A DNA stretch of 64,000 nt from Pristiophorus japonicus (lineage: Eukaryota). This document shows positions 1,412 to 62,450 of this stretch, piece by piece. The stretch's first letter is position 1. Each line of letters begins with the position of its first letter. The notes below the pieces were generated by a model. It had not been told where the DNA came from, searched no databases, and saw nothing but the letters and a program-made list of their open reading frames with translations. The position numbers and the translations under genes are program-made. The stretch is from contig NC_091995.1 of NCBI RefSeq assembly GCF_044704955.1, forward strand, positions 45,818,001 to 45,882,000. Direction: 5' to 3'.

Positions 1412-4400
1412 TCAGTATGATTGCTGGTATCTCACCTGGGCTGTCTGTTTCGATTGGTGTGATTGTTGTTGACTCGCCTGGGCTGTCTGTTGGGATTGCC
1501 CTTTCCTCAGGTTATTCCCTCTGTCTGTCCACAGGTGTGGTGTGAGTTCCACATTGTAGTCTGCCTCTGGTTCTGCAGTGTTGTTGGTGAATCTACTTTT
1601 TACTTGGTCTACATGCGTCCGGCAGGTTTGGCCATTGTCCATTTGTACAACCAGCAGCCTGTTTCCTTCCTTGCCTGTTACTGTCCCTGCAAGCCATTTG
1701 GGATCCCTGCCATAGCTTAGCACAGACACTTTGTCCCCTATCTCATTCCACCTCCCCCTCGAATTTCGGTCATGGTACTCAGTTAGCTTCCGGCATTTTG
1801 CCTCAACAATTTCATGCATGTCTGGGAGGATTAACGAGAGCCTAGTCTTTAAGGTCCGTTTCATCAATAGTTGCGCAGGGGGAACCCCAGTCAATGAATG
1901 CGGACAAGATCTGTATGCCAGCAGCAATCGCGACAGGCGGCTCTGCAGCGTAGGACCTTGGATTTTTAGCATGCCTTGTTTAACGAATTGCACTGCTCGC
2001 TCCACCTGGCCATTGGAGGCCGGCTTGAACGGTGCCGTCTTAACGTGATTTATGCCGTGGTCAACTATAAAATCTTGAAATCCTGCACTTGTGAAGCACG
2101 GACCATTATCACTGACCAATATGTCAGGAATTCCGTGCATTGCAAACATGATTCTAAGGCTCTCCACAGTGGTGGAGGTGGTGCTTGAGTTTAAAATGGT
2201 GCACTAGATCCACTTTGAAAATGCATCGACGACTACGAGGAACATTTTGCCCATGAATGGGCCTACATAGTCTACATGTACCTGCGACCAGGGTTTGGTG
2301 GGCCAGGGCCAGTGGCTTAGGCTGGCCTCCCTGGGGGCATTACTGAGTTGGGCACAAATGGTGCACTGCCTGATGCAGAGCTCCAAGTCCGCGTCAATGC
2401 CAGGCCATCAGACGTGGGATTTGGCTAAGGCCTTCATAAGGACGATCCCCGGGTGCTCGCGGTGAAGCTCCCTGACAAACGCCGTTCAGCCTCACAAGGG
2501 CATAACTACTCGGCTGCCCCACATCAGGCAGTCTGCCTGTGATGATAGTTCAAGCATGCGCCTATGGAAAGGTTTGAACTCCTCGGGGCAGGCATCACGA
2601 GCCTCTTCCCAGTCACCAGTTAAAAAACATTTTTTACTAAGGATAACGTGGGGTCGGTGGTCGTCCAGGCTCTAATTTGGCGAGCCGTCATGGGCGAACC
2701 TGTGGATTCAAAGGCATTGATTGCCATGACCATCTCACAGTCCTGTTCGTCGGACCCTTCCATAGTCGCCAGGGGTAGCCTGCTAAGCACGTCGGCACAG
2801 TTGTCTGTGCCTGGTCTGTGCCTTATTGTGTAGTCGTAAGATGCCAGCATGAGTGCCCACTGCTGAATACGCGCCGAGGTTTTGGCATTTATTGCCTTGC
2901 TCTCGGATAGCAGGGATGTGAGGGGTTTGTGGTCGGTTTCTAACGCAAACTTGACCCTGAAAAGGTATTGGTGCATCTTTTTGACACCATACACGCACGC
3001 AAGCGCCTCCTTCTCAACCATACCGTATCCGCGCTCCGCCCACGAAAGTGACCTGGAGGCATAAGCAATGGGTTGTAATTTACCCGCATCATTGACATGC
3101 TGTAAAACGCACCCGACCCCGTACGCTAACGCATCACATGTAAGGACTAGATTTTTAGCTGGGTCAAAAAAGGCTAAAACACTGTTGGAACATAGAAGGT
3201 TGCGTGCATTATTGAAGGCGCGTTCTTGGGCGTCCCCCCAAAACCAATCGCACCCCTTTCTGAGTAGCACGTGGAGAGGCTCCAGCAGCGTGCTCAAGTT
3301 CTGCATAAAGTTCTCAAAATACTTGAGTAGCCCGAGAAAGGCGCGCAGTTCCGAGACATTCCGGGGCCTGGGTGCCAGACGAATTGCTTCAGTTTTGGAT
3401 CCTGTTGGGCGGATTCCATCAACGGCAATCCTTCTGCCCAAAAAATTCAACCTCGGGTGCGAGAAACAGTCACTTGGATTTCTTAACTCTTAGGCCTACC
3501 CGATCCAATTGACTTTGTACTTCCTCCAAATTGCGAAGATTGGAATTGGTGTCCCTGCCCGTGATGTGTATGTCATCTTCAAACACAACCGTACCCGGGA
3601 TGGACTTGAGCAGACTCTCCATTTTGTGCTGGAATATAGCAGCTGCCGACCTGATGACGACTGGGCATCGATTGGACATAAAAAGATGTCGATATGTGTT
3701 GATGGTGGTGAGTAGCTTAGACTCTTTGGTCAGTTCTTGCATCATATACGCAGATGTAAGGTCTAGTTTCGAGAAAAGTTTTCCTCCAGCCAATGTGGCA
3801 AACACGTCCTCCGCTCTGGGCAGCGGGTATTGGTCCTGTAGGGAGACTCTGTTTATGGTAGACTTGTAATCCCCACAGATTCGTACAGATCCATCAGGCT
3901 TCATGACGGGAATTATAGGACTTGCCCAGTCGCTAAATTCCACGGCTGAGATATTGCCTTTCCGCAGAAGTCGGTCCAGTTCATGTTTAATCATTTCCCC
4001 TCACATAAGGCGCAGCTCTAGCCTTGTGATGGACCCGTCTGGCATCCTGTGTGATGTAGATTTTAACTTTAGCCCCTTTGAAGGTGCCCACCCCTGGCTG
4101 AAAGAGATGTTCAAAATGACTTAGAACTGTTGAGCAGGAGCTCCGTTCCTCTGAACACATGGCGTGAACATCATCCCATTTCCAATTTAGTTTTGCCAGC
4201 CAGCTTCTCCCCAACAGTACTGAGAGATCTCCAGGGACAATCCACAGGGGAAGTCGGTTCACCGTCCCTTTGTGTGTGACTGAGAGCATGGCGCTGCCAA
4301 GGACTGGGACAATTTCTTTGGTATAGGTCCTTAGTTTGGTGTCGATCCTTGTGAGTTTTGGTCTGTTGCTTTTGTGCGGCCACAGCTGTTCAAATTGTTG

Positions 4401-5509
4401 GACGCTCATGAGAGATTGACTAGCTCCCGTGTCCAGTTCCATGTTGACGGGTATCCCGTTGAGTAGGACCCTTATCATTATTGGAGGCGTCTTGTTGTAA
4501 GAACAGTGGACATTGATCGTATTGACCCGCTGTACCTCGGCGTCCCGGACACTGTCCCCACCGTCTTCTGGTCTGCTTTCCGACCCTTCTGATTCGTATA
4601 CCAGCCGAGCTGCTGTTTTTCTGCACATGCGAGCCAGATGGCCTGTATAGTTGCAGTTTCTGCAATCAGCATGATGAAATCAACACCCACTTGTTGAATG
4701 CCTTCCCCCACATCTCCAGCACAGACCACTTCCATTGTTTCCGAAGGATGAGCTGCGTCTGGCTGGTCTCTCTTGAGCTTCTCTCAGTCTGTAGTTGATT
4801 ACTCGCATTGTGGGTTGATGAGGTGTGAACGGCCGTTCATGTGGCCCTTGATGGCTTCTGGCGCCACTGCCTGCTGTTGAAGGACTGCTCTCCTGCCTTT
4901 GTCTGTTTGTGGGGGTAGCGGCTGTTTCACGCTGTGAACCACTTGTTCCGATGTTTCGTTAGTTGTTGTACCCGCAGTATAGATCAACCTCGTTTCTTCT
5001 TCTCCTGCTAAGAATGTCTGTGTGACCAGTACTGCTGTCTCTAGGGTCCAATTCTTGGTCTCTATAAGCTTTCGGAATATGCCTGTGTGGCCTATTCCTT
5101 CAATAAAAAAGTCTCTCAATACTTCTCTCCTTAGTTCATCGGAGAACTCACATAAACTAGCTAGCCTCCAAAGTTCCGCCACAAAGTCGGGTATACTCTG
5201 GCCCACACAGCGTCTGTCGTTGTAGAACCTGTGTCTGGCCATATGTCGGCTGCTCGCTGGCTTCAAGTGGTCTCTCACCAGTGTGCTCAACTCCTCAAAC
5301 GACTTGCTTGCTGGTTTCTCGGGTGCCAGCAGGTCCTTCATTAAGGCGTATGTTTCCGAGCCACAGCTGGTCAGGAGATGGGCTCTTCTCTTGTCTGCCT
5401 TATCGTCGCCCAACCAGTCTTTGGTTACAAAGCTTTGCTGGAGCCTTTCTATAAAGTCCTCCCAATTGTCTCAAGCATTGTATTTCTAATCTGAGCCGTT
5501 GGTAGCCAT
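1412..5509 (-). pseudogene. Disrupted gag-pol of the Gypsy element
   Basis: ORF fragments 4799-5413 (gag), 3987-4628 (protease), 3470-3994 (RT), 2620-3450 (RT/RNase H), 2204-2386 and 1412-2167 (integrase); probable ATG at 5509 followed by an early TAG. Confidence 0.92.
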
Positions 5510-14199: not shown

Positions 14200-14251
14200 A
14201 TGTTCCGCTTTGTTTTGCTGAGCCTTTGCTATTTTCAAAGGGCGGTTCCTG
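14200..14251 (+). CDS. MHC class I exon 1 (signal peptide)
   Basis: ATG...MFRFVLLSLCYFQRAVP then G|GTAAGT consensus donor, phase 1, in frame with exon 2. Confidence 0.8.
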
Positions 14252-17200
14252 GTAAGTCAAACCATGGGACTTGTGCGGCTATATTCTTTATTGCACGACA
14301 TGACCGCCAGCATGAACAACATACTGGACCCGTGTATAATCTGAGTTAGTTACACTGACTTACTCCGTGTTTAGTCCGGTTTACACTGACTGTCCCATGT
14401 TTCGTCCGGGATACACTGACTTACAGCGTGTTCAGCCCGGGTTACATCGACTGTCCTGTGTTTAGTCTGGGTTACACTGACTGCCCTGTGTTTAGTCGCA
14501 GTTACACTGACTGTGCCGTGTTTAGTCTGGGTTACACTGACTGCCACGGGTTTCGTCCGGGATACAGTGACTGCCCTGTGTTTAGTCAGGGTTACACTGA
14601 GTTTCCCGTGTTTAATCCTGGTTACAATGATGGCCCTCGTGTTTACTCCGCGTTACACCGATTGCCCAATGTTTACTTCGGGTTACAACGACTGCTCCGT
14701 GTTTAGTCCGGGTAAACTGACTGCCCTGTGTTTAATCTGGGATATACTGACTGCCCTGTGTTTAGTCCGGGTTACATCGACTGTCCTGTGTTTGGTCCGG
14801 GATACACCGACTGCCCCATGTTTAGTCCGGGATGCACCGAGTGCCCCGTGTTTCGTCCAGAATAAACTGAGTGCCCCGTGTTTAGTCCGGGATAGAGCAA
14901 CTGTCCTGTGTTTAGACCTGTTACACCGACTGCTCCGTGTTTAGTCCGGCATACACCGATTGCCCAGTGTTTAGTCCGGGATACACCGACTGCCCCGTGT
15001 TTAGTCCAGGTTACGCCGACTGCCTTGGACCTTGTGGATGCCCTACGGGAGCTCCTGTGCTGATTGAATCTCTGAGGGGATGATATGGGCTTGTGTGGTG
15101 CTGTACACTGAAGAAAGTTGCCGGCAGACTGATTGCAGGAATGGAGTGATGTCCATCAATTGTAGATGGGGATTTGTGCTTGAATCAGGCTGACGCGTTG
15201 CCAAGTTTGGTTGGCCTCATTTCTGGATGTTTCAGCACATGACCTCCAGTCGAATCACACCGCCTTTATTCCCCATCTTCAATACTTTTATAATTGCGAC
15301 TTTTTCCAATGTTATATTTCTCCCAAGTTTCTTGCAGCGGTATCCAGGCGATTAATCTTTAATTCCTGGACATTGCAGGATAGTTGGAAAATCTAAATTC
15401 CACCAGTCCGAGAGATAAAGTTGGTGGGATCTTGATAATGTCGTGTGACTCACACTTTGCCGATATTCATTTTGACCCCGTCTATTTCTGGCAGCAGCTC
15501 TGGCCACCTAAATGATGGACTGTCTGAAAATCAGAATGTGTGGAAAATGACCCAGTGTTCAGTAGTTCGGTGTCCTTGTTACTGCTCCATTGTTGGTCAG
15601 CAACACGGCAGCAGCAACTAGCAAGGATTTGCATTGGGTTTAGAGAGAGGGCCGTCATAACTGGGCAGCAGAAGAGAAACATTCCCTGACTGTATTCGGG
15701 GCAAGGAGCCTCATTCGCTGGGAGTGATGTTCTGTTGTGCGTGAGGATCTGAGCTGCCAGGACATACTCTTGACAATGGCCTGGAAGTGCACCGACGTTT
15801 TGTCTCCCTGGTCTGAACACGCTTGTTAGGAGCATGCTGTCCCACATAGAAAGTTAAGGCCATATTCATTGAAGGATACATTTATGTCCAGATTTTCATT
15901 CCAACAGATCCAGTTGTTCTAATTTAGGGTTTGTGCACCAATCGGGTAATGGGGCTAACGACCGTCCTCGCTCAAAAAATCCAAACTAGACCAACAAAGA
16001 AATAAATGTAGAGTTAAATTAGTCTCCTGGTGTCACATGCCAGATTGGCAGGGTCTGTAGGCCCATGTGGATCACATTTTGCAACACTTGAATTTTCTGG
16101 TGGCAGAAAGCGTGTCTTTAAACCTTGTAATCCTAACAGAACTAGATCATCATCTCATGCACTCTCTCGTGGTTCTACACACACAGAAAGAGGATATTGA
16201 CATGACAGATGAGTTACCAGCCGCCACTCGAGTGTTCTCCCAGCTGTAGGGACAGGAGATGGGCAGTATGCCAGGAAGCGTTTCCCGGATCACGCCCTTT
16301 GGCTCCCTATTTAAACCTATTTTCTTTTCTACATCCACCCATGTCTGATCGGGTATTTCATGCCCCAGCAATCCTCGACTGTATAATTAATCTATGGGGA
16401 GAAATGAACGTTGGTGAACTGCAAAACGCGTGCAAGTGGTTCAGTTGGTCGTCAAACAACCCATCTGATTTTCCTCCTCATTGAAAATCATGCGTTGCAT
16501 TTACCGCCCAATTCACACTCTGGCTTCAATTGAATTCCACTCCAACCTCTGACCTCTGCGCTCAACAGATGAATCACAAGGGGCTGATTTACTGTCAGCG
16601 TCGGGTAGAAAACTGCGGTAATGGGTCTACATTTCTAATAGTTGGTCTTCCAATGAGGGGGATTTTTAAAATTCTGTTCCAGTGTTTCATTCTCTGCTAT
16701 ACTACTACACCCTGAGCCATGGGAGTGCTGATCTGCCGGAGTATAGTTTCCTGGGACGTTTGGACGGCTCTGAGACAACCTATTACGACAATAATATGAA
16801 CATAACTGTTCCAAGACAGCACTGGATGGCGAAAGCATTTAACAAGCGATACTGGGAAGAATTCACAATCACTCAAGCGGGTTTCCACGGTATCATCAAG
16901 GGACAGTTTGATAGATGGCTACAGCAGGGCAACCAAACATCAAGTGAGTGGATTCATTTGAATGAATGCAGTAAACTGTGGGGTCATTTAAACTTGAGGG
17001 ATTCCTACCATCAGCGATATCGAACGGATAGCCCATTATACACGCCGCCTGATTTTCCATTCCATTATACCTTCAATAGAAAGGAACATCAAGCGAGGTG
17101 TGCAATGGGGAACTAATTGGATATGGCCCACTTTGTACGATGTCTGGAAGGTGCCATTAACTCCAATTAATTATATTTTTAATACTGATGGTGAAATTCA

Positions 17201-20200
17201 ATGTCGGCGGGTATAAAATGGGCAGTAGCAGCGAGTCCGCCCTTTAAACATGCTGTCTGATTGTCCTTTCCATTCAGTTGAAAGTAAAATGGGCCGAGCT
17301 ATATAACAGGCGGCTTTCCGCTACCACCCGTTTCGCAAGCCTGCTGAAGTAAAATTTAATTCCCAGGAGAAATGTTAAATATTATCACAGGCGAAATATG
17401 GACGCCTGTGAATCAGCGACCGTTTTACATCTGGATCGATTTTCTGAAATTCGGGCATTGTATAAAGTGGGCGGCGGATTCACTATTGGCCATATTCATC
17501 TGTTGATAAAAGATTTTAAAAATCCACCGCCCACCAGTGATTATTGAATGATATTGGTATTATTACATTCAATTAATTGTGTTGATAATATTCGATTTAT
17601 TGAATGATTTTGCTGGTAATTTTACACGTAACACATCATATCCTTGTTGCGGTAATTTTTAACTCTTCAGGCAAAAATGTAAAGTTGTCAATATCAGACC
17701 TGCCTCCCGTTCTACACCTTGCTCAGATTCCATTTCCATTGGGTGAGGTACATAACAGGCCTGCTTTAAATTGTGACCAAAATTTAAAATTCCCCACCGA
17801 TTCATGGTAATATTACCTTTCATGAAATATATCAGTAATAGATTTACTGAATGACGTTGGAAATATCACATTTTTGAATCATATCGGCAAAATTGTGTTT
17901 ATTGAATTATAGCATCAATATTCATATTATTGCACTTGTTGAATGGAATTGGTGAGCACCTATATAATATGTATGTATATATTTTGTGGTTCCAATGCCG
18001 TCTTACATCTAGGAGGTGGTTCATCAGAAAGGCGCACTGCACTGCCCGGAGTTTTCCATCCATGGACTATTTTGTTTTATCTTTGCACAATAGTTTAAAA
18101 TGAGTGATATCAAACTGACTGCCCAGTTTTCTCCCTGCCTGATTTTCCATTCCATTGACCTCAGTGGACATGAAAATCTGGCTGGTGCAAAATGGGCGGA
18201 CGATCCAATATTGCCCATTTTACACATTCACCCAAAGTCAAAATTACCCCCATGGAGTCAATTCCACTGTAATAAGGTTGGAGGACAGGGACTGTTACCT
18301 ATGCTGTTAAAACATAATTCAGTCCTAAATTTAAATGTCATACATTCTGGCCTGTATCCTGGGCTAATATTCGTGCATGTTATCTGTAGTTCAGTAGAAA
18401 ACTTAACAGAAAATTGTGATGGTGAGAAGTTGAGTTGGTTTATATTGGGGATTTTCCAGAAGTATAGGTTGAAAAGTTGGACAATATTACACCGAGGCAT
18501 TACAGCGGCACCATCGGAAGGCGTGTAAAATTACAGCCTGCTCATTTTACAGCAGCAACTCTCATATTAAGGGCCCAAGTTTCCACAGGATAAAAAACGG
18601 GCACCCCTCCGAGCTGGGCGCCCGTTTTTCGCACCTAAAACGGCGCCAGAAAAAAAACACGCTATTCTCGAGCGCTTTGTAGCTCCTTGTCTGTTTGGCG
18701 CAGCGCCCAGGGTGGCGGAGCCTACACTCGCGCCGATTTTGTAAGTGGGCGGGGGCGGGTACTATTTAAATTCGTTTTTTTCCTGCCGGCAATGCTGCGC
18801 GTGCGCGTTGGAGCGTTCGCGCATGCTCAATGTGAAAAAAAACATTGGTACTCGGCCATTTTTGTAGTTCTTTGCAGCTGTTTAATTTTTGAACATTTTT
18901 TAATAAAATCACATTGCCATCAGCACATCAACACTGAGGCTATACTTCTCACTGTCTCCTTCCCCACCCTTCCCTCCGCGGCAACAAACGGCTGTCTCCT
19001 TCCCCTCCCTCCCCTCCACAACAACAACCCACTGTCTCCTTCCCCTCCCTCCCCTCCGCGGCAACAAACCGCTGTCTCCTTCCCCTCCCTCCCCTCCACA
19101 ACAACAAACCGCTTTCTCCTCCCCCCCCACTCCTGCTCAGCGGCACAAACGGCTTTCTTCCGCCCCCACTCCCTCCCGCTCAGCGGCACGAACGGTTTTC
19201 TCCCTCCCCCCACCCCCGCTCAGCGGCAACGAACGGCTGCAGAATTCTCCCTGGCTGAAGCACTTTCACACAGGTAGGAAGATGGTTTATTTATAAATGT
19301 TTATTCAGGTTGGATTTATTTGTATAATATTTGTAGAAATATAAATAAGGATTTATTGTAGAATTAAATGAGTTCCCTCCCCCCCCCTCCCCCCCCGCAC
19401 CTCGTTCTGGACGCCTAATTTGTATCCTGCGCCTGATTTTTTAATGTGTAGAACAGGTTTTTTCAGTTCTACAAAAATCTTCACTGGCTCCATTCTACTT
19501 TAGTTTGGAGTACGTTTTCACTGTGGAAACTTTCAAATCAGGCGTCAGTGGCCGGACACGTCCCCTTTTGAAGAAAAAATTCTGTTCCAAAGTACAACTG
19601 TTCTACCTGACGAGAACTGCAGAAAAAAAAATGTGGAGAATTGCGATTTCTAAGATAGTCCGTTCTCCACCAGTTGCTCCTAAAAATCAGGCGCAAATCA
19701 CGTGGAAATTTGGGCCCATTATGTTGGCATATGAAATCATAAAATGAGACCGCATGGAAAGAGGCCATTCGGTCCAGCGTAGAACGGTCACCGATTACAC
19801 CCTTTCCCAATTCTCCCTTCCTTTGGGGCCATAGTGAATTGGCTGCCAATGTTACATCTTTGAAGTTAACAGAGAAATAAATGGGTCAAGTGCAGACTGG
19901 GCTACTGATCCACTCTGAGCCCATTTCTCAATTCTGACAAAGACAATTTTTACCCCATCAGGGCATTGAATATAGCATCAGGGACTTGATGCTGACTTAC
20001 ACAAAACACTGTTAAGACATTGTTAGCGTGTTAATGCAGTTCTGAGCACCTATATTGACACCAGGAAAAGTGTTTCACTAGAATGAGTGACTGTAGTTAT
20101 GAAAAATAAATTGAAAAGTGGGGCATTTTCACAGAAATAGACAAGGTTTGCGGAGGATGTGAGAGGTTTTCAAAGTTTTGTTGTTTTTTCAGAGAGTAAA

Positions 20201-23200
20201 CAATGAATAATTGTTCCCCTGCCTGAGCTAACAGAGAAGGTTAATGAGGCTAATGAGGTACTATACATTAATTTACAAAAGGACTTCGACAAAATTATAG
20301 CCCATGGAATGAAAGGGATAGTGGCAGCATGGACACAAAATTGGCTAGCGATCGGAAATGGACCACTGCTTTTCTTTAGATATATTCATGGCTTGGATGT
20401 GGGTGTAAAAGGCACAAATTCAATTTTTTCAGATGACACAAATGTTGGAAGTATAGAGAACCATGAGGAGGCGAGTGATGAATTCAGCAAGACATAGACA
20501 GGCGGATGAAATGAACAGACACGTGGCAGATCAAATTTAACGCAGTAAATTGTGAAGTGATGCATTTTGATAGAAATAATGAGGAGAGGACATATAAAGT
20601 AAATGGTACAATCATAAAGGGGGTGCCCGATCAGAGAGACATGGGTGTATATGTGCAAAAATCGTTTAAGATGGCAGGGCAGGTTGAGACAGCAGTTAAA
20701 CAGGCTTACGTGATCCTGGGCTTCATAAATTGAGGTATAGAGTACAAAAGTGTGGACATTATGACGATGCTGTCTAAAACACTGGTTCGGCCTCAACTGG
20801 AGTACTGTGCCCAATTCTGGGCACACACTTTAGGAAGGAACTGAAGGCCTTAGAGAAGGTATAGAAAAGATTTATGAGAATGATACCAGTAATGAAGGAC
20901 TTTAGTTACGTTGATAGACGGGAGAAGCTGGGTTGTTCTCCTTGGAGAAGAGAAGATTGAGAGGAGATTTGATAGAGGTGTTCAAAATCATGATGGGTTT
21001 GGACAGAGTAGATAGAGAGAAACTGTTTCCATTGCAGACGGGTCGAGAACCAGAGGACACAGATTTAAGGTGATTGGCAAAATAACCTGAGACAACGTAA
21101 CTAAATATTGTTTTACACAGCGAGTGTTCAACGTCTGGAATACACTGCCTGAAGAGGTGGTGGAGGCAGACTCTAAAAGGGAATTAGATAAGTATCCGAA
21201 AGAAAAGAAAATCAGGGCTATCGAAAAGGCCAGGGTAGTGGGACTAGCTGAGAGCCGGCACGGCTCGACAGTCCGAATGACCTTCTTCCGTATTCTAACC
21301 ATTATATGATTCTATGATTCATAGCGAATTGTTAATAAGAGGCACACCGTCACTAGAACAACGATGGTAGAAATTAGGATTTTTCCCGTTAGAATATGCA
21401 ATGTTACTGAGGCAGTTACCACAACATAACTTAAAAGGGAACTTGATAAATATATGAAAATGAAGATGCTAGAAAAAAATGAACATCGGCAGGGAAATAG
21501 AACTAAAGCAGAAAGCCCCTGTCTAAATTTGGCGCCAAATGTTCTCTTTCTGTGCTGTAAATTCTATATCTCTGTGTAACGATGCTTGTTTCAAATACTA
21601 AATTCCATTTCTACCCTAAGTAATGGAGAGACTGACTAGATGTGCAGTGACTAGAAGATAGCTGACATTCTCAGACGGTGTGAAAAAAGCGATAATTATG
21701 TAGCTATTGATCGGTTGAATAACTGTTCTAGGTACTCACTACATTCAAGGACTGTTTGGCTGTGAGCTGCATGATGCCAATCCTATTGGAGGGGTTCTGA
21801 AATTGGCTTATGATGGAAGATATGCACTTTGTTTTGATAAAGACACATTGGTTTGGACTGTACATGATCCAATAGCTCAGATGTCCAAAGCGAAATGGGA
21901 TAAGGAAACAAAGTTGAACCGTTACTTCAAGAGCTTGATAGAAAAGGACTGCGTGAATTTATGGAGGACATACTATTCAATTGGAAATGTATCACTAACC
22001 AGAAAAGGTAAGTTCAGAACAACCTGGGGATAGTGTACAATGGGCGATATTGGACCATCTTCCATTACACACCTCGCCCCATTCTCCTTTAACAGGCAGC
22101 CGATGCAATATCGCCAATTTTGGACTAGCGGCATAAGTTCAAGTGATCCCCCTGATTTTATTTTGAAATGTGCACCTTATATTGAAGTTGAAAATAATTG
22201 TCATTCTATCACGTAGTTTCCCTGAGGTCTCAGTTATTGCCAGGGCTGGTGATCGTTGGTTTCTCCACTGCATTGTGATTGGATTTTACCCGCAGTCCAT
22301 CAATGTGACCTGGTTGAAGAATGGGGAACATGTCCCTGAGACCAAATCTACTGGAGTATTACCCAATGAAGATGGGACGTATCAACTAACGACAAGCCTT
22401 GAATTTGATCCGTATGATGGGAAACAATACTTCTGTCATATTGAACACAGCAGCTTGTCAGGTGGGAAGACTGTCCCCTGGGGTAAGGACATGAGCAGCA
22501 ACACTGAACAATCCATCAATAATCACAAACATCCCATACAGGGAGAGAGCAGGGATCAATGAAATTAATGATTGAATCAAATTGGCCATTGCCTCCCAGC
22601 CTTTCTACTCTACTCTACAAATGAACAGGATATTCTGTTTCCCAGTGATTTGTATGTGTTATTATCTGGTCTGTTGTGCTGTTTCTTATGGACACGACCA
22701 GGAACATTAAAATCTGTCACTCCTATAACTGTCATTTCTTGTCCGTCACTTTTCTCTGCATTGTTCTTTCTGTCAGTTTATTTACACGTAAAACCACGCT
22801 TTTGTTATCTCTGTTCTTCAGGCTGCCTGTGAGTGTTTCTCATTCTTTCTGTCACTTTTCGGAACTTTATTTTATCTTCTGACTCTTCCATAATCTTTAC
22901 CCACCCCTCCTTGTGTGCGCCCCCACACTTGCTTTCTCTATATATATCTTTGTCATTGATTCTTACTGTCTATCTCCTCTTTATACACCTCCCCAGCCTC
23001 CCCCCTCCCCCCCGCACCCCGCCGGCTCCCCCAACCACACACACACACGATCTCAGAGTTCGATAGGAAACGATTCCGTATTCACAGTCTATCTGGGTTC
23101 GAGAATGGATTAATCTGCATTCATCATCCACGCTCCAACAGCAGACTCTTCATTTGTCTGAGTTGTTGTTGCTTCATTGTTTGTTTCTGCTTTCTCATTG

Positions 23201-25666
23201 TTGATCCCTTGCACCGTGTTTCTGGAGCTGCTCGATTTCTGAGCTTGAACATTTGCTCTGTGCTAAACTATTTCACTCTCAGCGTCAGTGTGTTTTTGAT
23301 TATGTTGTCTCTTTGCTCTGGTGGGGAATAAGGGGACGGGTCACCTTGAGGAGGAGTGTGGAAGCGTTGTGAGGAAAGGGTATTGAAATGTAGTGCACTG
23401 AGGAAGCGATGATAAGATTATGCGGCCGGACGGCAAGGGTGAGGCTGAATTGGCTCCTGAGGCGGGAATGGGTCTGATGTACACAGGGAGCTGCAGGCAA
23501 GGAAGTTGGCGGATGAGGGCTTTGCCCAGAGAGCAAAAATCTGCAACAAGAGTGAAGGTTGGGGCAACACAAAATACAGATGGGTGGAAACACCCATAAA
23601 ATAAGCCTAGAAATTGAAACAACAGCCGTGATGCTATCGATTTTTAAAACAAGGTCAGCATTTTACAATTTGAATTAAAAGTGAAACTTTCTGAAGCTAG
23701 TTTGGTTAATTACAATTATCATGAGCTGCAACTTTGAACCTTGAGCTCCCTCCCATCACACGGACCTGTGGGAACAGTAGGAAGCTCGATCCCCCAGCCC
23801 TGGGAGCTGGCATAGTGGGTATCATTGATGCAACTGCCATTATTTACCCCTCGACCAGCAGACACAGGCCTCTGCCACTTCTTTACCTGGCTCCCCTCAC
23901 CCAGTGATCCAGGGGCAGTTGTGTGGGATGGGACAGCTTGCTTTCCTCCTGCCTCGCTGGGCACAATGACCATAACCCCTTTCCATTGGTCTCCCAGCAG
24001 CACATTCATATCTCTGGCCCAGCCCCGATCAATCAGGAAATCGCGCTTCACTCTTCACAGCCTTTGATTCTCCACGCCTCCCCCCACCCCCGAGTCACAT
24101 TTACAGCATTCTCTCTTCGTGGACCAGAACCTGTGGTTACTAACAAAAAGTGAACTTTGTGGCTTTAAAGAAACCTGGCCCCACCTTCGTGAAATAATAC
24201 ATTGTGCACTGTGTGGTGTGGGAAATCGTACATATAAAGCAGCACATCATCGGTGCATGAGTAGGGCCACAGGTTCCCATTGACTATATGTAAAACTGTC
24301 AATCCACACATATATAATTATACAACCCTTGCTCATATATTTCAGAAGGCAAAGTAGAAAAAGACAAGGATGTGGTGCTGATTGTCTTGGGTGTACTGCT
24401 ATCGTTGGCTATCGTTTTAATTGTAATCTATATGTGGAGGAAAAAACGGAGAGGTAAGGTCAGGGAATAATGTTGCAGTCTTTTATGTAAATGTATTGCA
24501 CAGTGGCTTTGCAGAAAATCTTGTAGCCTGCCTCAGGATTATATTTCAATGTCAAATATCTGTTATAAAGTAAACAAGAATAAATCCATTTGTTTAACGC
24601 CTTTCCAAATCTCAGTACGTCCCAAAGCGAATTACACTCAATGAAGCACCAAGTGTATTCACTGTTGTAATGTAAGAAACGCGGCAGCCGACGTGCGCAC
24701 AGCAAGCTCCCACAAACAGCAACGTGGTAATGAGCAGAGAATCTGTTTTACTAATGTTGATTGAGGGGCATCGGGGAAAACTAACCTTGCACTTCTATGA
24801 AATAGTGCTATTGGATCATTTACATCCACCTGAGAGGACTGATGGTTTAACATCTTACCCGAAAGACCGCAACTCTGTCAAATTAACGTGCATGTTGAAT
24901 TCTGTAATACGGGCTTGTTCTATCCACCTTTTCCTCCTGACAACTATTGGTTCCCAGACATGGGCAGCCCTTGTGTACCTGTCTGAGGAGTCACACTTCA
25001 TGTGTTGCCCTAGACACAGAGGTCCTGTGTTCATAGAGCCGCCCTTTCCTGCTGGGGTCATTGGATTGCCATCAGGAGCAGGACGCCAGCCATTTTTCTC
25101 CTTCCAAGCCCAGGAATCCTGGAGCCAATGTGAACTCTGTGACAGCAGCGACCAGTGCACTGAGGGGGAGCCTGGCTGACAGGGCCTAGTACCAGTTAGG
25201 ACGGTGCATTTTCACGCCGAGATTTGGCATTGAGATCCATTTCTCTGTAATACTTCCAATAAACTGGATGTCCTTGTTGGACTGTGAGCATCTAGCCAGT
25301 AGAAGGAGACCAGTTGCAGTTAGGTATTTGTGAACTATGGGTCCTTCTAATGAATCAGTTTTAAACAGAGGCTGTGAGTTCCTGATTTCAGCCTCCCATC
25401 AGGAATGGCGACCAGCAGGTGTTTCCCACTGGAACTGAGGGGGAATGGGAACTGAAGCGTCCGACTTCTTGCAGTATAACTGACCACAGCGCAGCATTTA
25501 CAGAGGATTGGAGAACGGACACCTTAAGGGAGCTAGCGCTCTGTAAGGGGAAGAACCATGAAAAGAGTGTGAACAAGTCACTTCATTCTCTGTACTGTGC
25601 TTTGCTCCATCATCTCGGGATTGTGTAACATTTGTATTTCACTCCCTAGATTACAATGTTGTTTAA
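14200..25666 (+). CDS. Non-classical MHC class I heavy-chain gene, 6 coding exons (14200-14251, 16683-16943, 21732-22007, 22217 or 22234-22482, 24346-24453, 25650-25666)
   Basis: One domain per exon with GT-AG phase-1 introns, the canonical class I organisation; class I motifs in alpha1, alpha2 and alpha3; TM with basic stop-transfer residues; AATAAA at 25908 and 25933. Frame anomaly at the alpha3 acceptor leaves functional status uncertain. Confidence 0.88.
14329..15024. repeat. About 30-bp minisatellite (over 20 copies) in MHC intron 1
   Basis: Consensus GTGTTTAGTCCGGGTTACACTGACTGCCCC repeated head-to-tail with divergence and no unique spacers. Confidence 0.92.
16683..16943 (+). CDS. MHC class I exon 2 (alpha1 domain)
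   Basis: TTCCAG| ... |GTGAGT, 261 nt; (V)FHSLLYYYT...LPEYSFLGRLDG...YYD...PRQHWM...YWEE...NQT with the conserved N86 glycosylation site. Confidence 0.93.
17020..17540. mobile_element. Cluster of short degenerate palindromic (MITE-like) elements
   Basis: Imperfect inverted arms, e.g. CCCATTATACAC..GCCTGATTTTCC versus GGAACATCAAGCGAGGTGTGCAATGGG; related copies near 18070-18250, 22025-22140, 28030-28320 and 50130-50280. Confidence 0.55.
18571..19717. mobile_element. Non-autonomous DNA transposon (PIF/Harbinger-ISL2EU-type MITE)
   Basis: 16-bp TIRs GGGCCCAAGTTTCCAC / GTGGAAATTTGGGCCC (1 mismatch); AT-rich flanks; internal short tandem repeats at 18950-19230; no coding capacity. Confidence 0.8.
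19960..21570 (+). mobile_element. CR1 LINE fragments in MHC intron 2
   Basis: FSDDTNVG, RPQLEYCAQFW, RLRGDLIEVFKIM; 3' tail ATTCTATGATTC near 21320; older 3' fragment to 21570. Confidence 0.85.
21732..22007 (+). CDS. MHC class I exon 3 (alpha2 domain)
   Basis: TTCTAG| ... G|GTAAGT, 276 nt; (S)THYIQGLFGCELH...AYDG...FDKDTLVW...AQMSKAKWD...CVNLWRTYY...LTRK with the C101/C164-equivalent pair. Confidence 0.95.
22217..22482 (+). CDS. MHC class I exon 4 (alpha3 Ig C1 domain)
   Basis: PEVSV...LHCIVIGFYPQSINVTWLKNG...VLPNEDGTYQ...YFCHIEHSSL...W, donor G|GTAAGG. The acceptor at 22216 is 1 nt out of frame; an in-frame CAG lies at 22231-22233. Confidence 0.93.
24346..24453 (+). CDS. MHC class I exon 5 (transmembrane)
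   Basis: TTTCAG| (E)GKVEKDKDVVLIVLGVLLSLAIVLIVIYMWRKKRR G|GTAAGG, 108 nt, phase 1-1. Confidence 0.88.
24585..24875 (-). mobile_element. Deu-domain SINE fragment (SacSINE1/AmnSINE-like)
   Basis: CACTGTTGTAATGTAAGAAACGCGGCAGCC...ACATCCACCTGAGAGG...GGTTTAACATCTTACCCGAAAGAC resembles the antisense of this family; related fragment at 44102-44215. Confidence 0.7.
25650..25666 (+). CDS. MHC class I terminal coding exon (cytoplasmic tail DYNVV*)
   Basis: Pyrimidine-rich acceptor TTTGTATTTCACTCCCTAG|AT TAC AAT GTT GTT TAA in phase 1, followed by an AT-rich UTR and polyA signals. Confidence 0.65.
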
Positions 25667-25907: not shown

Positions 25908-25938
25908 AATAAAGGCACACCGGGGATTTTAAAATAAA
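25908..25938 (+). terminator. Candidate polyadenylation signals of the MHC class I gene
   Basis: AATAAA at 25908-25913 and 25933-25938, about 250 nt after the stop codon. Confidence 0.5.
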
Positions 25939-28569: not shown

Positions 28570-29450
28570 TTATTTCCCATCATTAATAATAAGAGCCAAG
28601 GGATATTTCATCAAATTCTTCAACTCCTCTCTGAATTTAGTCTTGGACACTGCATAAATAATGGTATTTGCGCAAGAACTCAAATCATGCAACATATATC
28701 CAGTTCGTTCCATGATGGTGGAAGGATTACTGTAGTCTGTGCACAAATATTGAACATCCATAATTTGCACACATACATAATGAATAAAAGTTACCATACA
28801 TAACAATGTAAAACTACCAGATATGACCAGCAGTAAAACGATGGATTTTCAGCGGTTTTTCATTTCTGGGTCACTGTCGCTGCTCTGGAGATCCTCCTCA
28901 GTCTACTTGTCAGCAGAATATGCTTGATGATCACACCATTGAATATTGGAATCAAAAGAAACGGAATCAAAGGCATTAAAGCTGCATCAAGCCATAAGGA
29001 TGTGACCCATATAGTTACAGTGTAGGGGCTGGATTTCACATCGCAGAACCATGGTATATTGTTATTGATTACTTGAGGTTCTATAGTAAAATAAATGGGA
29101 TTCTAAAGTAAATTAGATGCTCAGCCCCATATCATTGCTACAACCACCACCGCATTTTTTTGTGCAATGTTGGATCTTATTGTGTGGCGATAAATGGTGA
29201 CAAATCGACCAAAGGTGAAATCGAAAGTGAACCAAACAGAACATTCATCAGAAGCCAAAATCAGGATCACATTCAGACTGCAATCCGGAGGGTAGTCCAG
29301 GAATGAATCCAGGAAATAAATTTAATTCATCTGATACAACATCACGTCAAAGATCAGGACCAGTAGATCAACCACCAGGTAAATAGTGATGCATTTGGAG
29401 AGACCGTATGCACTTCCCACAGGAGATAATCATAATTGTCACGAAGTTGG
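28570..29450 (-). pseudogene. GPR139-like class A GPCR pseudogene (main exon)
   Basis: Minus strand reads GLSKCITIYL, DLLVLIF, CSVWFTFDFTFGRFV, PWFC, DPEMQNR*KSI, LSSCANTIIYAVSKTKFREEL; several stops and frameshifts; paralogous to 49178-50071. No exon 1 found. Confidence 0.88.
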
Positions 29451-29681: not shown

Positions 29682-32600
29682 AGGGGAAAATCCGTCCCAT
29701 TATTGCCTCCCGTTAGCGACAGCAGGTGGCGCTAACGGGGCACTAAGGCAGTATCGCCGGGGTGAGGTGAATCCAATGACACATGCCAAATCCCCACCAC
29801 CCATCCACGATGGCAGCAGTCAGAGCTCACGTGGCATCAAGCTGAGATTGAATGAGAGCAGCCTGAAATCTGATGTTACCAAGCACAGACTGCACTACAG
29901 CATTCGGAGATTGTGTCGCTTCCGTCTGTGCTGCATTGGAAACATAAAAACACAGAAAACAGGTGTAGGAGTAGCCCATTCGGCCCTTCGAGCCTGCACC
30001 AACAATCAATATGATCACGACTGGCCATGCAACTTCAGTACCCCATTCGTGATTTCTCTCCATACCCCTTGATCCCTTTAGCCGTATGGGCCATATCTAA
30101 CTCCCTTTTGAATATATCTAACGAACTGGCCTCAACAACTTTCTGTGGTAGAGAATTCCACAGGCTCAAAATTCTCTGAGAAAAGAAGTTTCTCCTCATC
30201 TCGGTCCTAAATGGCTTACCCCTTATCCTTAGACTGTGACTCTTGGTTCTGGATTTCCCCAACATCGGGAACATTCTTCCTGCATCTAACCTGCCCAATT
30301 CCGTCAGAGTTTTAAATGTTTCCATAAGATTCCCTCTCATTCTTCTAAATTCCAGTGAATATAAGCCCAGTCGATCCAGTCTTTCTTCATATGTCAATCC
30401 TGCCATCCTGGTAATCAGTCTGGTGAAACTTCGCTGCACTCCCTCAATAGCAAGAATGTCCTTCCTCAGATTAGGAGACCAAAGTGTACACAATATTCAA
30501 GGTGTGGCCCCACCAAGGCCCTGTACAACTGCAGTAAGACCTCCCTGCTCTCATACGCAAATCTCTCGCTATGAAGGCCAACATGCCATTTGCCTTCTTC
30601 ACCGCCTCCTGTACCTGCATGCCAACTTTCAATGACTGATGTACCATGACACCCAGGTCTTGTTGCACCTCCGCTTTTCCTAATCTGTCACCATTCAGAT
30701 AATATTCCGCCTTCCTGTTTTTGCCACCAAAGAGGATAACCTCACATTTATCTGCAGTATACTGCATCTGCCATGCATTTGCCCACTCACCTAACCTGTC
30801 CAAGTCACCCTGCATCCTCTTAACATCCTCCTCACAGCTCACATTGCCATCCAGCTTAGTGTCATCTGCAAACTTGGAGATATTACATTCAATTCCTTCA
30901 TTTAAATCATTAATATATACTGTAAATAGCTGGGTTCCCAGCACTGAACCTTGCGGCACCCCACTAGTCACTGCCTGACAATCTGAAAATGACCCGTTTA
31001 TTCCTACCTTTTGCTTCCTGTCTGCCAACCAGTTCTCTATCCACGTCAATTACATATGCTTTAATCTTGCACTCTAATCTGTTGTGTGGGACCTTGTCAA
31101 AAGCCTTTTGAAAGTCCAGGATCACCACATCCACTGGTTCTCCCTTGTCCACTCTACGAGTTACATCCTCCCACATCAGCTGCCACATCACCCATCCCAT
31201 GGAGCATCAGGTCTTGGTTGCCATTGTCCCTTTGGCAGTCTACAATTCTTTTCAGACTTTACATGATCGGCTCCATGGTATGCACAGAGCCTTGTGCAAG
31301 TTGGAGGTGGACCCCTCCATGCTCATTATCAATGACGAGAAGCTGTCGTGCACCCTTGCCATTGCACCTATTATCTCCGTGTGCATGCCCATCAACCATC
31401 TTCTAAAAGCCTCCCCATCGAGGTCCTCATCTGACTCCTGTGCAGCAGAGTTCATGCGTGAACTCACCTTCCAGAATGCTGGCCCCTGAGCTACCCATCC
31501 TTCCTGCCCTTGTTGCAGCCCATTCTACCTCGGTGCCTCACCCTGTGCGGGTGCCGCTACTGTACTATCATCTAAAGAATGCGAAGTGACAATGTCTGAG
31601 CTCGTGCCTGCGGGTGACTCATGCAGTGACTTGGTGTGTTCTTCCTCCTCCTCCTCTTCTCCTGCCTCACTCTCCACAGTCCCCTCAGCAACAGGCTGCT
31701 CAGTGTTTGTACTGTAGCTGAAAAGGCACCAATAATGGTTCAAGGTGAAGGGATGGGGCCATGAAGGGAGAAGAGCTTACACAATTAGCTGTAAGTTGTG
31801 AACCGTCTGTGGGAACTGCGATGTGAGAAGGAGAAGGGACGAACACACCGTTGTTAACCCCAGATGGGTCAAATTTACCGGTGGCTTGGCGTCCACCATC
31901 TATAATTTGTGGCACTCCATTTTACAGTGCAGACAGTGGTTGGCTGTCGGCTTGTCCTCCGCCTGTGCACTCCTGCTCTCTCCTGTTGTGGGGAAAATGA
32001 TCCTGCAAAAGAAAGGAAGGTTTGTAAGTCAGTGTGGAGCAATGCATTTGGGTGATATGCCTCCCATTGTTTAATAGCTGTCATTGTGTGCAAGGTGTGA
32101 GCTGTGGGTGTGAGTATTGGTAGTCAGTGATTGTTGGTGGGTGAGTGTTGGGGATGTGGTGTTTTGGAGACTGTGTCAAGATTGTAGTTCAGATGGTGGT
32201 GTACAGCAATTGTTGAAGCATTCACTCACCCTGACCACCTGAACGAGGTCCTTAAATGTCTTCGTGTGTGAGTCCTGGGGACCAGAGTGCTGCCTGAGAC
32301 GTGCTGCACCTCTGCCGTTCACATGATACGGAAGACTTGTGGTGAGGGCCTCCTGCCACTTGCTGGAGAGAGCACCTCCCTCCGTCTCTCCACACCAAAC
32401 ACCAACGCTTGATCGCAGAATCTTCAGGCTCGCTCCCTGGGGCGTGGATCTGCCATGAGTACAGTTACTTCCATTCTCCGGCTCGTTCTCCTTATCCTGC
32501 TGCTGCTGGCTAACGGAGCTGCTGCAGCCAGCAAAGCTGAGAATGAGTTCATGCAGCATCAATGAACCTCCCCTTTAAGTACTGAAAAAAGTCGGCAGCA

Positions 32601-47801: not shown

Positions 47802-50071
47802 ATGGGACAGCAAGTAATCATAAAGATAGAAAACATTTACTATCCTATCCTTGCAACAGTTGGTGTTGCTGGTAAGCTGCTTAAATCAGTTAATATTCAC
47901 CTTAAACAGTGCTTCACTGTGTCACTGTTCCTGCTATTGGTGTATAAATAATATTTGTTTGTTTTGTTGTGATTTATGTGCAGACTTTGCTTACCGCAAT
48001 CAAACAAATAATAATTAGAATACTCTAACTTTCTGACATATTCTTAATGTAATAACGTGACAGACTGCGCAATTTCTATTTATGGAAACAATTTTGGTCA
48101 GATTGTGCCTCCTTTGTAAAGATTCTTGTAATTTTCAGAAACGAAATACTGCGGATTATAGAAACCTCAGCAGGCTAGGAAGTTTATATGGAGTGGGAAA
48201 CTGAATTAAAGTTTAAGGTCAATGACCATTTCTGATAAAATATCATCGATCTAAAATGTTAACGATGTTTCTCTTGCTATATATGCTGTCTGCCCTGCTG
48301 AAGGTTCACAGTATTTTCTATTCTTTTATGTCATTTTTAATCTGAGTCAAATATTAGTATCACACCTGGGTTCTAGTTAATATCATTGAACATTTTTAAA
48401 TAGACATCAAGGTCTGTTTACCACTAACTTTCAGCGACTGTTATCACTATAACTAGAAATCCATAAACAATGGGCGCAGTTACTGTTATGTTTTGGTCCA
48501 AGGTGAGATCTCGAAAAGCAGGCAACTGCCCGGAAATTTTACACTCACAGGGCAACCCTGAAGGTTGCAAGTATGATACTGAGCAGTATTGGATGCTGCA
48601 TTATATTGAGGCCAGCTAATAATGTGAGGCTGCACAGCACAGGTCAAAATGCTGTTTGACTCCCAAAGACAAGGTCAGGCAAAGTTTATAATTATCACAC
48701 CGGTAGCTATGGGGGAGGTTTTATTATTTACGGCTGCATTGGATGGATAGAACAAACTGCTGGAAAGGAGCCACCAGCTTTGCATAGTCCGATGGATTTT
48801 GCTGCCAATTAATATCAAACAAAGGGAAATGCGGCGGGTTGTGTTAGCAAGTGATACTTGGCCAGAATCTCCTTTCAGTGCACCAGTCAATCAATCTCCC
48901 ACTGTGGGGCAATGTTAACCTAGCCCGCCTGTCGGTAAACTGAGAGGATCAGGTACAATGCTGGTTTAACACTATGCCGATTCTACTCTCTACTGAAGGT
49001 AATGGAGAATAATAATGGAGTAAAACGAGCATGGCACTCAATGCATTGATTTTCTCCCTGGAAAGACATTTGGGTGCCAAGATTAGAAATTCATGAATTT
49101 TCATTCCAATAAATTGGTAAGTGATCATCCTCTCAATATAAGGAGAGACAGTAACTTCATCTTCCTCCTCTTCATAGCTAATTTAGCGACAATTCTGGTT
49201 CTCTCCTGTGGAAGCTGCGGTCTCTCCACATGCATCACCAGTTACGTGGTTGCCATGGCAATGGTTGATCTACTGGTCCTGATCTTTACTGTAATCCTGT
49301 ATGAAATTAATGATGCTTATTTTCCATATTCATTTCTGAACTACACTCCCATTTGCAGTCTCAATCTCTCCTTGAGTTTTGCTTCAATTGATTGTTCTGT
49401 CTGGTTAACTGTTGCTTTCACCTTTGATCGATTTGTGGCCATTTGTTGCCAACGGTTTCGATCAAAGTATTGCACCACAGAAACTGCAGCTGTGGTTATA
49501 GCTGTAGTGAGTGGGCTGAGCATCTTAGAAAGTGTTCCAATCTATTTTATAAATTAACCTTGGCAAATAATTGACAATGTACCATGGTCCTGCTATGTAA
49601 TATCAAGTTTTTATACCTCACCAATATGGGTAACATATTGGTGGTTGGAAACAGTTTTAACTCCACTTGCTCCATTTGTGTTCATTTTACTGCTCAATGC
49701 TCTGACCATCAGGCACATCGTACTGGCCAATAGGGTGAAAAAAGGAACTCCAAGCAAACAACAATGCTGAAAATCACAGTCATCCAGAGATTGAGAACCG
49801 AAGGAAATCCATATTTTTATTGCTCGCTATATCTGGCAGTTTTATACTGTTATGGATGGTAACATTCATATCTTATATATTTGTACAATTTGAAGATACT
49901 CAGTTTCTACAAGCAAATTACAATGACCCTTTCACTATTATGGAACAAACTGGGTATATGCTTAGCATGTTGAGCTCCTGCACAAACACCTTTAATTATG
50001 CAGTGTCCCAGAGTAAATTCAGAGCTGAGCTGATACTTATCACTAAGCGTCCACTTGGACGAATAACATAG
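47802..50071 (+). pseudogene. GPR139-like class A GPCR, two exons (47802-47871, 49178-50071), disabled
   Basis: Exon 1 MGQQVIIKIENIYYPILATVGVA G|GTAAGC splices in phase 1 to ANLATILVLSCGSCGLSTC...DLLV...SVWLTVAFTFDRFVAICC...LNALT...ENRRKSI...SSCTNTFNYAVSQSKFR. In-frame TAA at 49555-49557 and a +1 frameshift in the A-run near 49738-49743. Confidence 0.92.
48135..48330. mobile_element. Degenerate inverted Penelope terminal-repeat hairpin in the GPCR intron
   Basis: Same inverted arrangement as 28340-28520. Confidence 0.55.
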
Positions 50072-61921: not shown

Positions 61922-62450
61922 GTCCCAGTGGATGTGGTGTATTTGGATTTCCAGAAGACATTCAATAAGGTTCCACATAAGAGGTTACTGCACAAGATAA
62001 AAGCTCACGAAGTTGGCGTAATATATTGGCATGGATAGAGGAATGGCTACCTATAGAAACAAGAGAGTCGGGATAAATGGGTCAATTTCCGGTTCGCAAA
62101 TAGTGATTAGTGGGTTGCCGCAGGGATTGGTGCTGGATCCTCAACTATTTACAATCTATATTAATGACAAGGGTGAAGAGACCGAGTGTAATGTAGCCAC
62201 GTTTGCTGATGGTAAAAAGATGGTTGAGAAAGCAAATTGTGAGGAGGACACAAAAATATCTGCCAAGTGATATAGACAGGCTAAGTGAGTGGGCAAAAAT
62301 TTGGCAGATGGAATATAATGTGGGAAAAATTGTGGTTTTTACTTTGGCAGAAATAATAGAAAAGCAAATTATAATTTAAATGGAGAAAAATTGCAAAGTA
62401 CAGAGAGACCTGGGGTCCTGCGTATGACACACAAAAAGTTAGTATGCAGG
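61922..62450 (+). mobile_element. CR1 RT fragment
   Basis: PVDVVYLDFQKTFNKVPH, LPQGLVLDP, FADG. Confidence 0.9.

Follow-up and report, generated by a model that had tools for sequence, protein, structure and literature searches.

A class I gene of the non-classical UGA lineage with a frameshifted alpha3 exon in the sawshark Pristiophorus japonicus: a likely young pseudogene

The window, by which we mean the whole stretch of 64,000 nucleotides of Pristiophorus japonicus DNA analysed here, holds a class I gene whose membership of the elasmobranch non-classical lineage UGA we regard as practically beyond doubt. One base is missing from its alpha3 exon, and on balance we favour the explanation that this UGA copy is a likely young pseudogene. 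A preliminary description of the locus had implied an intact, working gene; that implication is not confirmed, as the assembled alpha3 exon is out of frame and the copy is one of four recent duplicates broken in alpha3.

Results

Gene structure at the locus

The gene comprises six exons on the plus strand, located where the preliminary description had put them, with every boundary of the GT-AG type and in phase 1. The alpha3 exon encodes a C1-set domain in its own frame, and polyadenylation signals (AATAAA) stand at 25908 and 25933. The features, in window positions, are as follows.

14200..14251, plus strand: leader exon, 52 nt, with a GT donor; one of two candidate leaders
About 1.5 kb upstream of the window start (G000:C19:45816512): second candidate leader, of the form typical of the lineage
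16683..16943, plus strand: alpha1 exon, 261 nt, open
21732..22007, plus strand: alpha2 exon, 276 nt, open, with C101-C164; donor 9/9 against the consensus
22012..22013, plus strand: cryptic GT donor, weak (3/9 against the consensus), frame-restoring, lying 4 nt inside the intron
22217..22482, plus strand: alpha3 exon, 266 nt, with the C run near its start one base short
22232..22233, plus strand: downstream AG acceptor, frame-restoring, 17 nt downstream, giving alpha3 minus 5 residues
24346..24453, plus strand: exon for connecting peptide, transmembrane segment and basic stop-transfer sequence, 108 nt
25650..25666, plus strand: tail micro-exon ending in YNVV-stop, a YxxPhi-type sorting motif

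The leader at 14200 scores 9/17 against two UGA leaders and 7/17 against a classical leader, and a leader of its type is the sole one detected in the 65 kb searched upstream of paralogue D. We rejected the possibility that it is not a genuine leader because of this (weak) likeness to UGA leaders and because paralogue D has no other.

Assignment to the UGA lineage

A UniRef protein labelled Pristiophorus japonicus matches the alpha2 exon with 100% identity. Compared with PDB chains, each of alpha1, alpha2 and alpha3 matches 9CH4_A far above any other chain (alpha1, E 1.5e-37 and 5.6e-10 for the next match; alpha2, E 1.4e-40 and 1.2e-15). The entry, released on 2026-03-18, bears the title 'Crystal structure of shark nonclassical MHC CLASS I, UGA', and the alpha1-alpha3 letters of its chain A are, by eye, those of the 'Gcirratum_UGA' rows in the supplement of PMC10751288. 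The ectodomain of the window copy is 70% identical to 9CH4, and its identity to UGA sequences is 58-86%, as against 33-36% to classical ones; UGA orthologues at 56-75% identity were found in sharks and rays.

Structural comparison gives the same picture. A first fold of the 487-aa database model, made with an 18-row alignment, was poor (pLDDT 56.9) and was replaced by a fold of the ectodomain made with a 92-row alignment (pLDDT 93.6). The folded ectodomain has the junction residues of the database model, and it therefore represents a rescued form of the protein rather than the canonical product. Among its structural matches 9CH4 ranked first (TM 0.91, Z 30.6-30.8, rmsd 2.2 over 267 residues); the next entry is chicken BF2 at Z 28.0, with YF1 at 27.5 and shark classical class I at 26.7.

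In a tree of 54 rows, all 18 UGA rows form one clade at 100/100, among them skate P0016, which matches the Lerinacea_UGA alpha1 row except for one residue (by eye), and a mixture-model tree of 26 rows unites 11 of 11 UGA rows at the same support. The join of UGA to its sister lineage carries a long-branch warning in the 54-row tree and still stands at 98/95 with the mixture model. These trees hold 53 and 25 proteins chosen from about 240, with no CD1, MR1 or UFA rows among them, and the named lineage sequences of the supplement were compared by eye outside the trees. An AU test rejects the grouping of the window copy with two classical-type rows (p-AU 0.00016). The phylogeny thus places the gene in UGA and rejects a classical grouping, and the suggestion that it may belong to an already described chondrichthyan non-classical lineage is borne out by the tree and by the match to 9CH4. 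The MHC linkage expected of UGA is also seen, as UDA-like, UFA-like, UAA-like and class II exons (labels assigned by eye) lie at 52.9-57.2 Mb of the same contig, C19.

Residues of the groove

Numbering after HLA-A2 was set by hand from published alignment rows of HLA-A2 and UGA. Under this numbering all 27 residues named in the preliminary description are as it gave them, and C101, C164 and N86 are likewise present. Of nine peptide anchors the copy retains five, where each of seven classical-type shark sequences retains 8-9, the non-classical anchor positions being Q84, S143, L159 and A123. Together with the rejection of a classical grouping, this confirms the earlier view of the gene as non-classical class I.

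The groove is more apolar than in classical molecules on both position lists, as had been claimed, by a margin that is modest on the broader one. Over 45 positions that we take to line the groove, mean Kyte-Doolittle hydropathy is 0.42, against -0.06 to 0.27 in seven classical-type shark sequences; 17 UGA relatives span 0.17-0.95, a range that touches the classical-type range and includes the window copy. Over a list of 29 pocket positions, which overlaps the residues picked out in the preliminary description, the value is 0.72 against -0.60 to -0.23 in the classical-type sequences.

Much of the apolar core is conserved among the 17 relatives: all of them have F99, L114, F156 and L159, while 16 have W81 and G97, 15 have L167 and 14 have F70. 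Conserved polar residues are Y9, Y22, T66, Q77, Y155 and D163. The window copy has S at position 143 (F, L or M in 16/17 relatives), L at 152 (M in 16/17) and F at 63 (in none of the 17). It deviates at 6 of 128 near-invariant UGA columns, C31S and S125C included, a number that falls within the 3-21 deviations of intact relatives. A strict YxxPhi motif occurs in 9 of 17 UGA database proteins and in 0 of 8 proteins of the sister lineage; several of the 8 UGA proteins without it look mis-modelled at the 3' end.

Six UGA copies in the genome

Six alpha2 matches at 80-100% lie on C19, with a further fragment on C20; the sawfish has three UGA proteins. Four of the copies are young, namely the window copy (B) and copies C, E and F, which can be aligned in long blocks at 92-97%; for C and F these blocks extend over more than 30 kb. 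All four are frameshifted in alpha3, by two independent events: C, E and F have in common a one-base loss in the middle of alpha3, which the window copy does not have and which differs from its own. Copy E has lost a further 7 bases of alpha3 and has a shifted transmembrane exon, and in copy F the transmembrane exon is deleted. Every exon is in frame in paralogue D (C19, 47.18 Mb), and it is the likeliest working copy. In noncoding sequence the four young copies differ by 55 indels per 8516 sites, and at this rate an indel would be expected in coding sequence if selection had lapsed.

The alpha3 frameshift and its consequences for splicing

Paralogues A and D have an alpha3 exon of 267 nt, and that of the window copy measures 266 nt; the missing base is present in 5/5 other copies, and the genome contains a single instance of the short form. 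With an exon 4 of 266 nt the joined frame runs into a stop at 22276-22278, so that under canonical splicing translation would end 20 residues past alpha2 and 204 nt upstream of the next junction, and a full open frame from leader through alpha1, alpha2, alpha3 and transmembrane segment to tail fails in the gene as assembled. The loss of a base from a homopolymer is a typical long-read error. In this case we judge the loss to be very probably real rather than an error of assembly, given that three siblings are broken and that noncoding indels among the copies amount to 6.5 per kb.

Other splicing patterns would leave the frame open. Use of the downstream acceptor, which has two AGs in the 20 nt before it, gives an open frame of 320 aa, and in-frame skipping of exon 4 one of 237 aa. 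The database model P0005 apparently uses the cryptic donor at 22012..22013, to judge by its junction residues. It ends in unrelated 3' exons, and is probably wrong both there and at the alpha2-alpha3 junction. The 20-residue frameshift tail (mean KD 2.06, last 14 residues) could be read as a GPI-anchor signal; we set this reading aside because the tail comes from reading a conserved exon out of frame, is confined to one copy and ends at a stop that should trigger decay.

Low variation in the exons of the young copies

Among the four young copies 13 of 537 alpha1+alpha2 sites are variable, whereas in noncoding sequence 618 of 8516 are (P 3e-6). The difference persists at non-CpG sites, where alpha1+alpha2 (9/511) vary about 3.5-fold less than the adjoining flanks (63/1017, P 5e-5), and among C, E and F only (6/511 against 51/1017, P 8e-5); 0 of 39 noncoding bins are equally low. 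Nonsynonymous differences in alpha1-alpha2 number 8, with 29.7 expected at the intron rate (P 3e-6), and synonymous differences 4, with 8.7 expected (P 0.07). In alpha3, 7 nonsynonymous differences are observed with 14.7 expected, and the contrast with alpha1-alpha2 is not significant (P 0.27). Indels are absent from alpha1 and alpha2 (3.5 expected, P 0.03), and alpha3 has three. In every pairwise comparison the transmembrane exon shows 4 differences in 96 sites, which is the neutral rate. On the path from the window copy to C, E and F there are 4 nonsynonymous changes, where about 6.7 are estimated under neutrality, and hence no clear constraint. Of the three alpha1 variants that copies share, two do not fit the intron tree, a pattern suggestive of gene conversion.

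Discussion

What could have become of this gene? We propose repeated duplication of a segment of at least 30 kb, after which the window copy would have lost one base near the start of alpha3; with canonical splicing, the resulting stop would make its transcript a likely target of nonsense-mediated decay. Late inactivation together with gene conversion focused on the exons explains the low variation of the young copies with no need for a new function. The sawshark genome thus shows an expansion of UGA to six copies with four of them broken, a birth-and-death pattern.

An intact UGA molecule would be expected to pair with beta2m through alpha3. A bulky apolar residue at 143 and the conserved apolar residues would make an acyl-chain cavity in place of peptide pockets, with F70, I73/I74, W81, F99, L114, L116, F156, L159 and L167, over G97, holding the acyl chains, and Y9, Y22, T66, Q77, Y155 and D163 could contact the lipid head group. 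The YxxPhi tail may route the chain through endosomes, with lipid exchange there, as in CD1. By this analogy intact UGA would most likely be loaded with lipid in endosomes and present it to innate-like T cells.

We consider it unlikely, while giving it more weight than the other alternatives, that the window copy is a working full-length UGA gene in which the absence of the C reflects an error of assembly or a rare allele, or in which the cryptic donor or the downstream acceptor restores the frame. Both rescue sites do exist, but the cryptic donor matches the consensus more poorly than the canonical donor 4 nt away (3/9 against 9/9), and the downstream acceptor has two AGs shortly before it. 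The ectodomain of the database model folds with high confidence; that model, however, requires the weak donor and closes with 3' exons unrelated to the gene. A lone base is lost, within a C run, the other splice sites, the transmembrane exon, the YNVV tail and the polyadenylation signals are intact, and the frameshift common to C, E and F is absent, but all three sister duplicates are broken. The deviations at near-invariant columns are in number those of an intact relative, yet they include C31S and S125C; and while alpha1-alpha2 of the four young copies vary below neutral, the window copy's own path to C, E and F shows no clear constraint.

Improbable in our estimation is a further possibility, that the four young copies have been retained for an alpha3-less product, either alpha1-alpha2 joined to the transmembrane segment with its YxxPhi tail or a secreted alpha1-alpha2. 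By analogy such a product might be an EPCR-like lipid carrier, presumably beta2m-independent, though we hold this too to be improbable. All four copies did acquire alpha3 frameshifts, by two events, and skipping of exon 4 would leave an open frame; the alpha3 acceptor, however, is intact, so that nothing forces the skip. Non-CpG variation in alpha1+alpha2 is low even among C, E and F, with no noncoding bin to match it, and indels are confined to alpha3 among the three domains; against this, alpha3 also varies below neutral without a significant difference from alpha1-alpha2, synonymous sites are low too, and the conflict of alpha1 variants with the intron tree suggests gene conversion. The transmembrane exon that the membrane-bound form would need evolves at the neutral rate, and it has been deleted from F and shifted in E. 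EPCR is a precedent in that, according to PMC11012567, it is without alpha3 and yet holds a phospholipid. Were this reading true, the sawshark would offer a living example of a CD1-like gene losing its dependence on beta2m, with a bearing on how EPCR- and ULBP-type molecules arose; that a CD1-to-EPCR transition is being replayed in a shark, with alpha1-alpha2 under purifying selection, seems to us correspondingly doubtful.

A classical peptide-presenting gene (UAA) or a new unnamed lineage can be dismissed as refuted by the trees, the AU test (p 0.00016) and the 70% identity to 9CH4, with five of nine anchors kept and sequence identities of 58-86% to UGA but 33-36% to classical class I, even though chicken BF2 (Z 28.0) is the nearest solved structure after UGA.

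Returning to the favoured reading, a likely young pseudogene of UGA, the apolar groove and the lipid inference of the preliminary description are already known as UGA, a lineage that has been named and whose structure has been released. The inference of a lipid presenter is probably right for the lineage. UGA lipid binding has been reported, by personal communication, in PMC12562908; since both that binding and the likeness to CD1 were already on record, it is not new.

Comparison with known systems

The closest known system is nurse shark UGA (9CH4), which resembles the window copy in clade, fold, apolar groove core, YxxPhi tail and MHC linkage. The window copy departs from the UGA norm in its alpha3 frameshift, and from the UGA consensus in S143, F63, L152, S31 and C125. 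The six copies of this genome also differ from what has been reported, UFA and UGA being described as single- or low-copy and MHC-linked in PMC12562908. The same 2025 review calls UFA and UGA CD1-like, citing a personal communication, and states on the same basis that a crystal structure and mass spectrometry suggest CD1d-like lipids for UFA/UGA. In the part of PMC10751288 that was available, UFA is called CD1-like from unpublished data, its orthology with CD1 is called difficult to assess, and UGA is listed only among the query sequences. A literature search whose coverage left out subscription journals found no primary paper for 9CH4, and a passage of a 2026 preprint contained no mention of UGA.

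Shark UFA (8GM8) is likewise non-classical, MHC-linked and reported to be CD1-like, and a UFA-like gene (by eye) lies on the same contig; at 28% identity, Z 22.2 and rmsd 2.6 over 252 residues, it is a separate lineage. Tetrapod CD1 shares the class I fold, an apolar groove and a short YxxPhi tail, a motif that CD1d carries according to PMC2194227, and the lipids reported for UGA are said to be similar. It differs at 19-27% identity, with Z 25.2 for chicken CD1-1 (3JVG) and 23.4 for human CD1d (6V7Y). Judged by Z, CD1 is not a nearer match to the model than classical class I is, and it falls below the classical and YF1 entries. The profile PF16497, which we take to be that of CD1-type alpha1-alpha2 domains, gives 22.1 bits, under its cut-off of 35, and PF00129 gives 93.7.

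Chicken YF1 (Z 27.5) and ZAG (Z 26.7) are class I-like molecules with lipid or fatty-acyl ligands in their PDB titles; at 28-30% identity they are likely analogues rather than orthologues. EPCR (PROCR) is comparable under the alpha3-less reading only, as a molecule of alpha1-alpha2 and transmembrane segment with no alpha3 and, in the source quoted above, a lipid in its groove. It differs at 13% identity and in gene structure, since the EPCR gene is without an alpha3 exon, whereas in the sawshark copy the exon is present but frameshifted.

UGA copies and associated relics

Besides the gene in the window, the MHC-bearing contig C19 carries other copies of the UGA lineage, together with relics confined to the alpha1 domain:

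C19 40.24, 46.29, 47.18, 47.46 and 51.51 Mb: five further UGA copies, named A, C, D, E and F, with D at 47.18 Mb (loci L069-L088)
C19 45800732-45800941: UGA-like alpha1-only relic (L039), 17 kb upstream of the window
L034, L040-L042 and L044: more UGA-like alpha1-only relics

All exons of copy D are in frame, and an alpha3 frameshift is common to copies C, E and F. The ectodomain of copy A is intact; its transmembrane exon has lost one base and the usual acceptor, which places the YNVV tail out of frame. The relics, UGA-like at 39-57% identity and in three cases interrupted by a stop codon, are placed upstream of UGA copies, with which they appear to have been co-duplicated.

A sister lineage of UGA

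A lineage sister to UGA, at 40-45% identity to it, is found on the same contig:

C19 44.97, 48.54, 49.65, 52.48 and 44.91 Mb: sister lineage loci (L035-L038, L043, L007-L009)

Its orthologues, present in sharks and rays, form a separate clade of nine rows in the tree (support 100/100). The groove is more apolar still than that of UGA (mean Kyte-Doolittle hydropathy 1.18 over 45 positions), and the lineage lacks a YxxPhi tail. Comparison by eye revealed no counterpart among the labelled rows of the PMC10751288 supplement.

Other elements of the window

The database model of the window UGA locus, P0005, lacks the YNVV micro-exon; its last exons are two unrelated frames (29716-29961 and 31238-31486) that have been appended. 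The window also contains:

1415-5470 (-): broken LTR-retrotransposon-like frames, reverse transcriptase and RNase H matches
14349-15024: minisatellite, 30-nt unit, 22.5 copies, shortly 3' of the leader exon
18952-19239: minisatellite, 40-nt unit, 7 copies, inside intron 2
28573-29102 (-): rhodopsin-family GPCR-like frame in two pieces, no match in the Pfam search
49087-50068 (+): rhodopsin-family GPCR-like frame in two pieces, 7tm_1 match
about 58900-62000 (+): broken LTR-retrotransposon-like frames, reverse transcriptase and RNase H matches

Classical-like genes off the MHC contig

Classical-like class I genes occur on a contig different from that of the MHC:

C3 316.6-319.3 Mb: nine classical-like class I genes (L012, L014-L021)

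All nine are near-identical to one another and intronless, a single uninterrupted frame spanning alpha1, alpha2 and alpha3, and they are possibly amplified retrocopies. PMC10751288 states that searches of elasmobranchs recovered class I genes nowhere but in the MHC.
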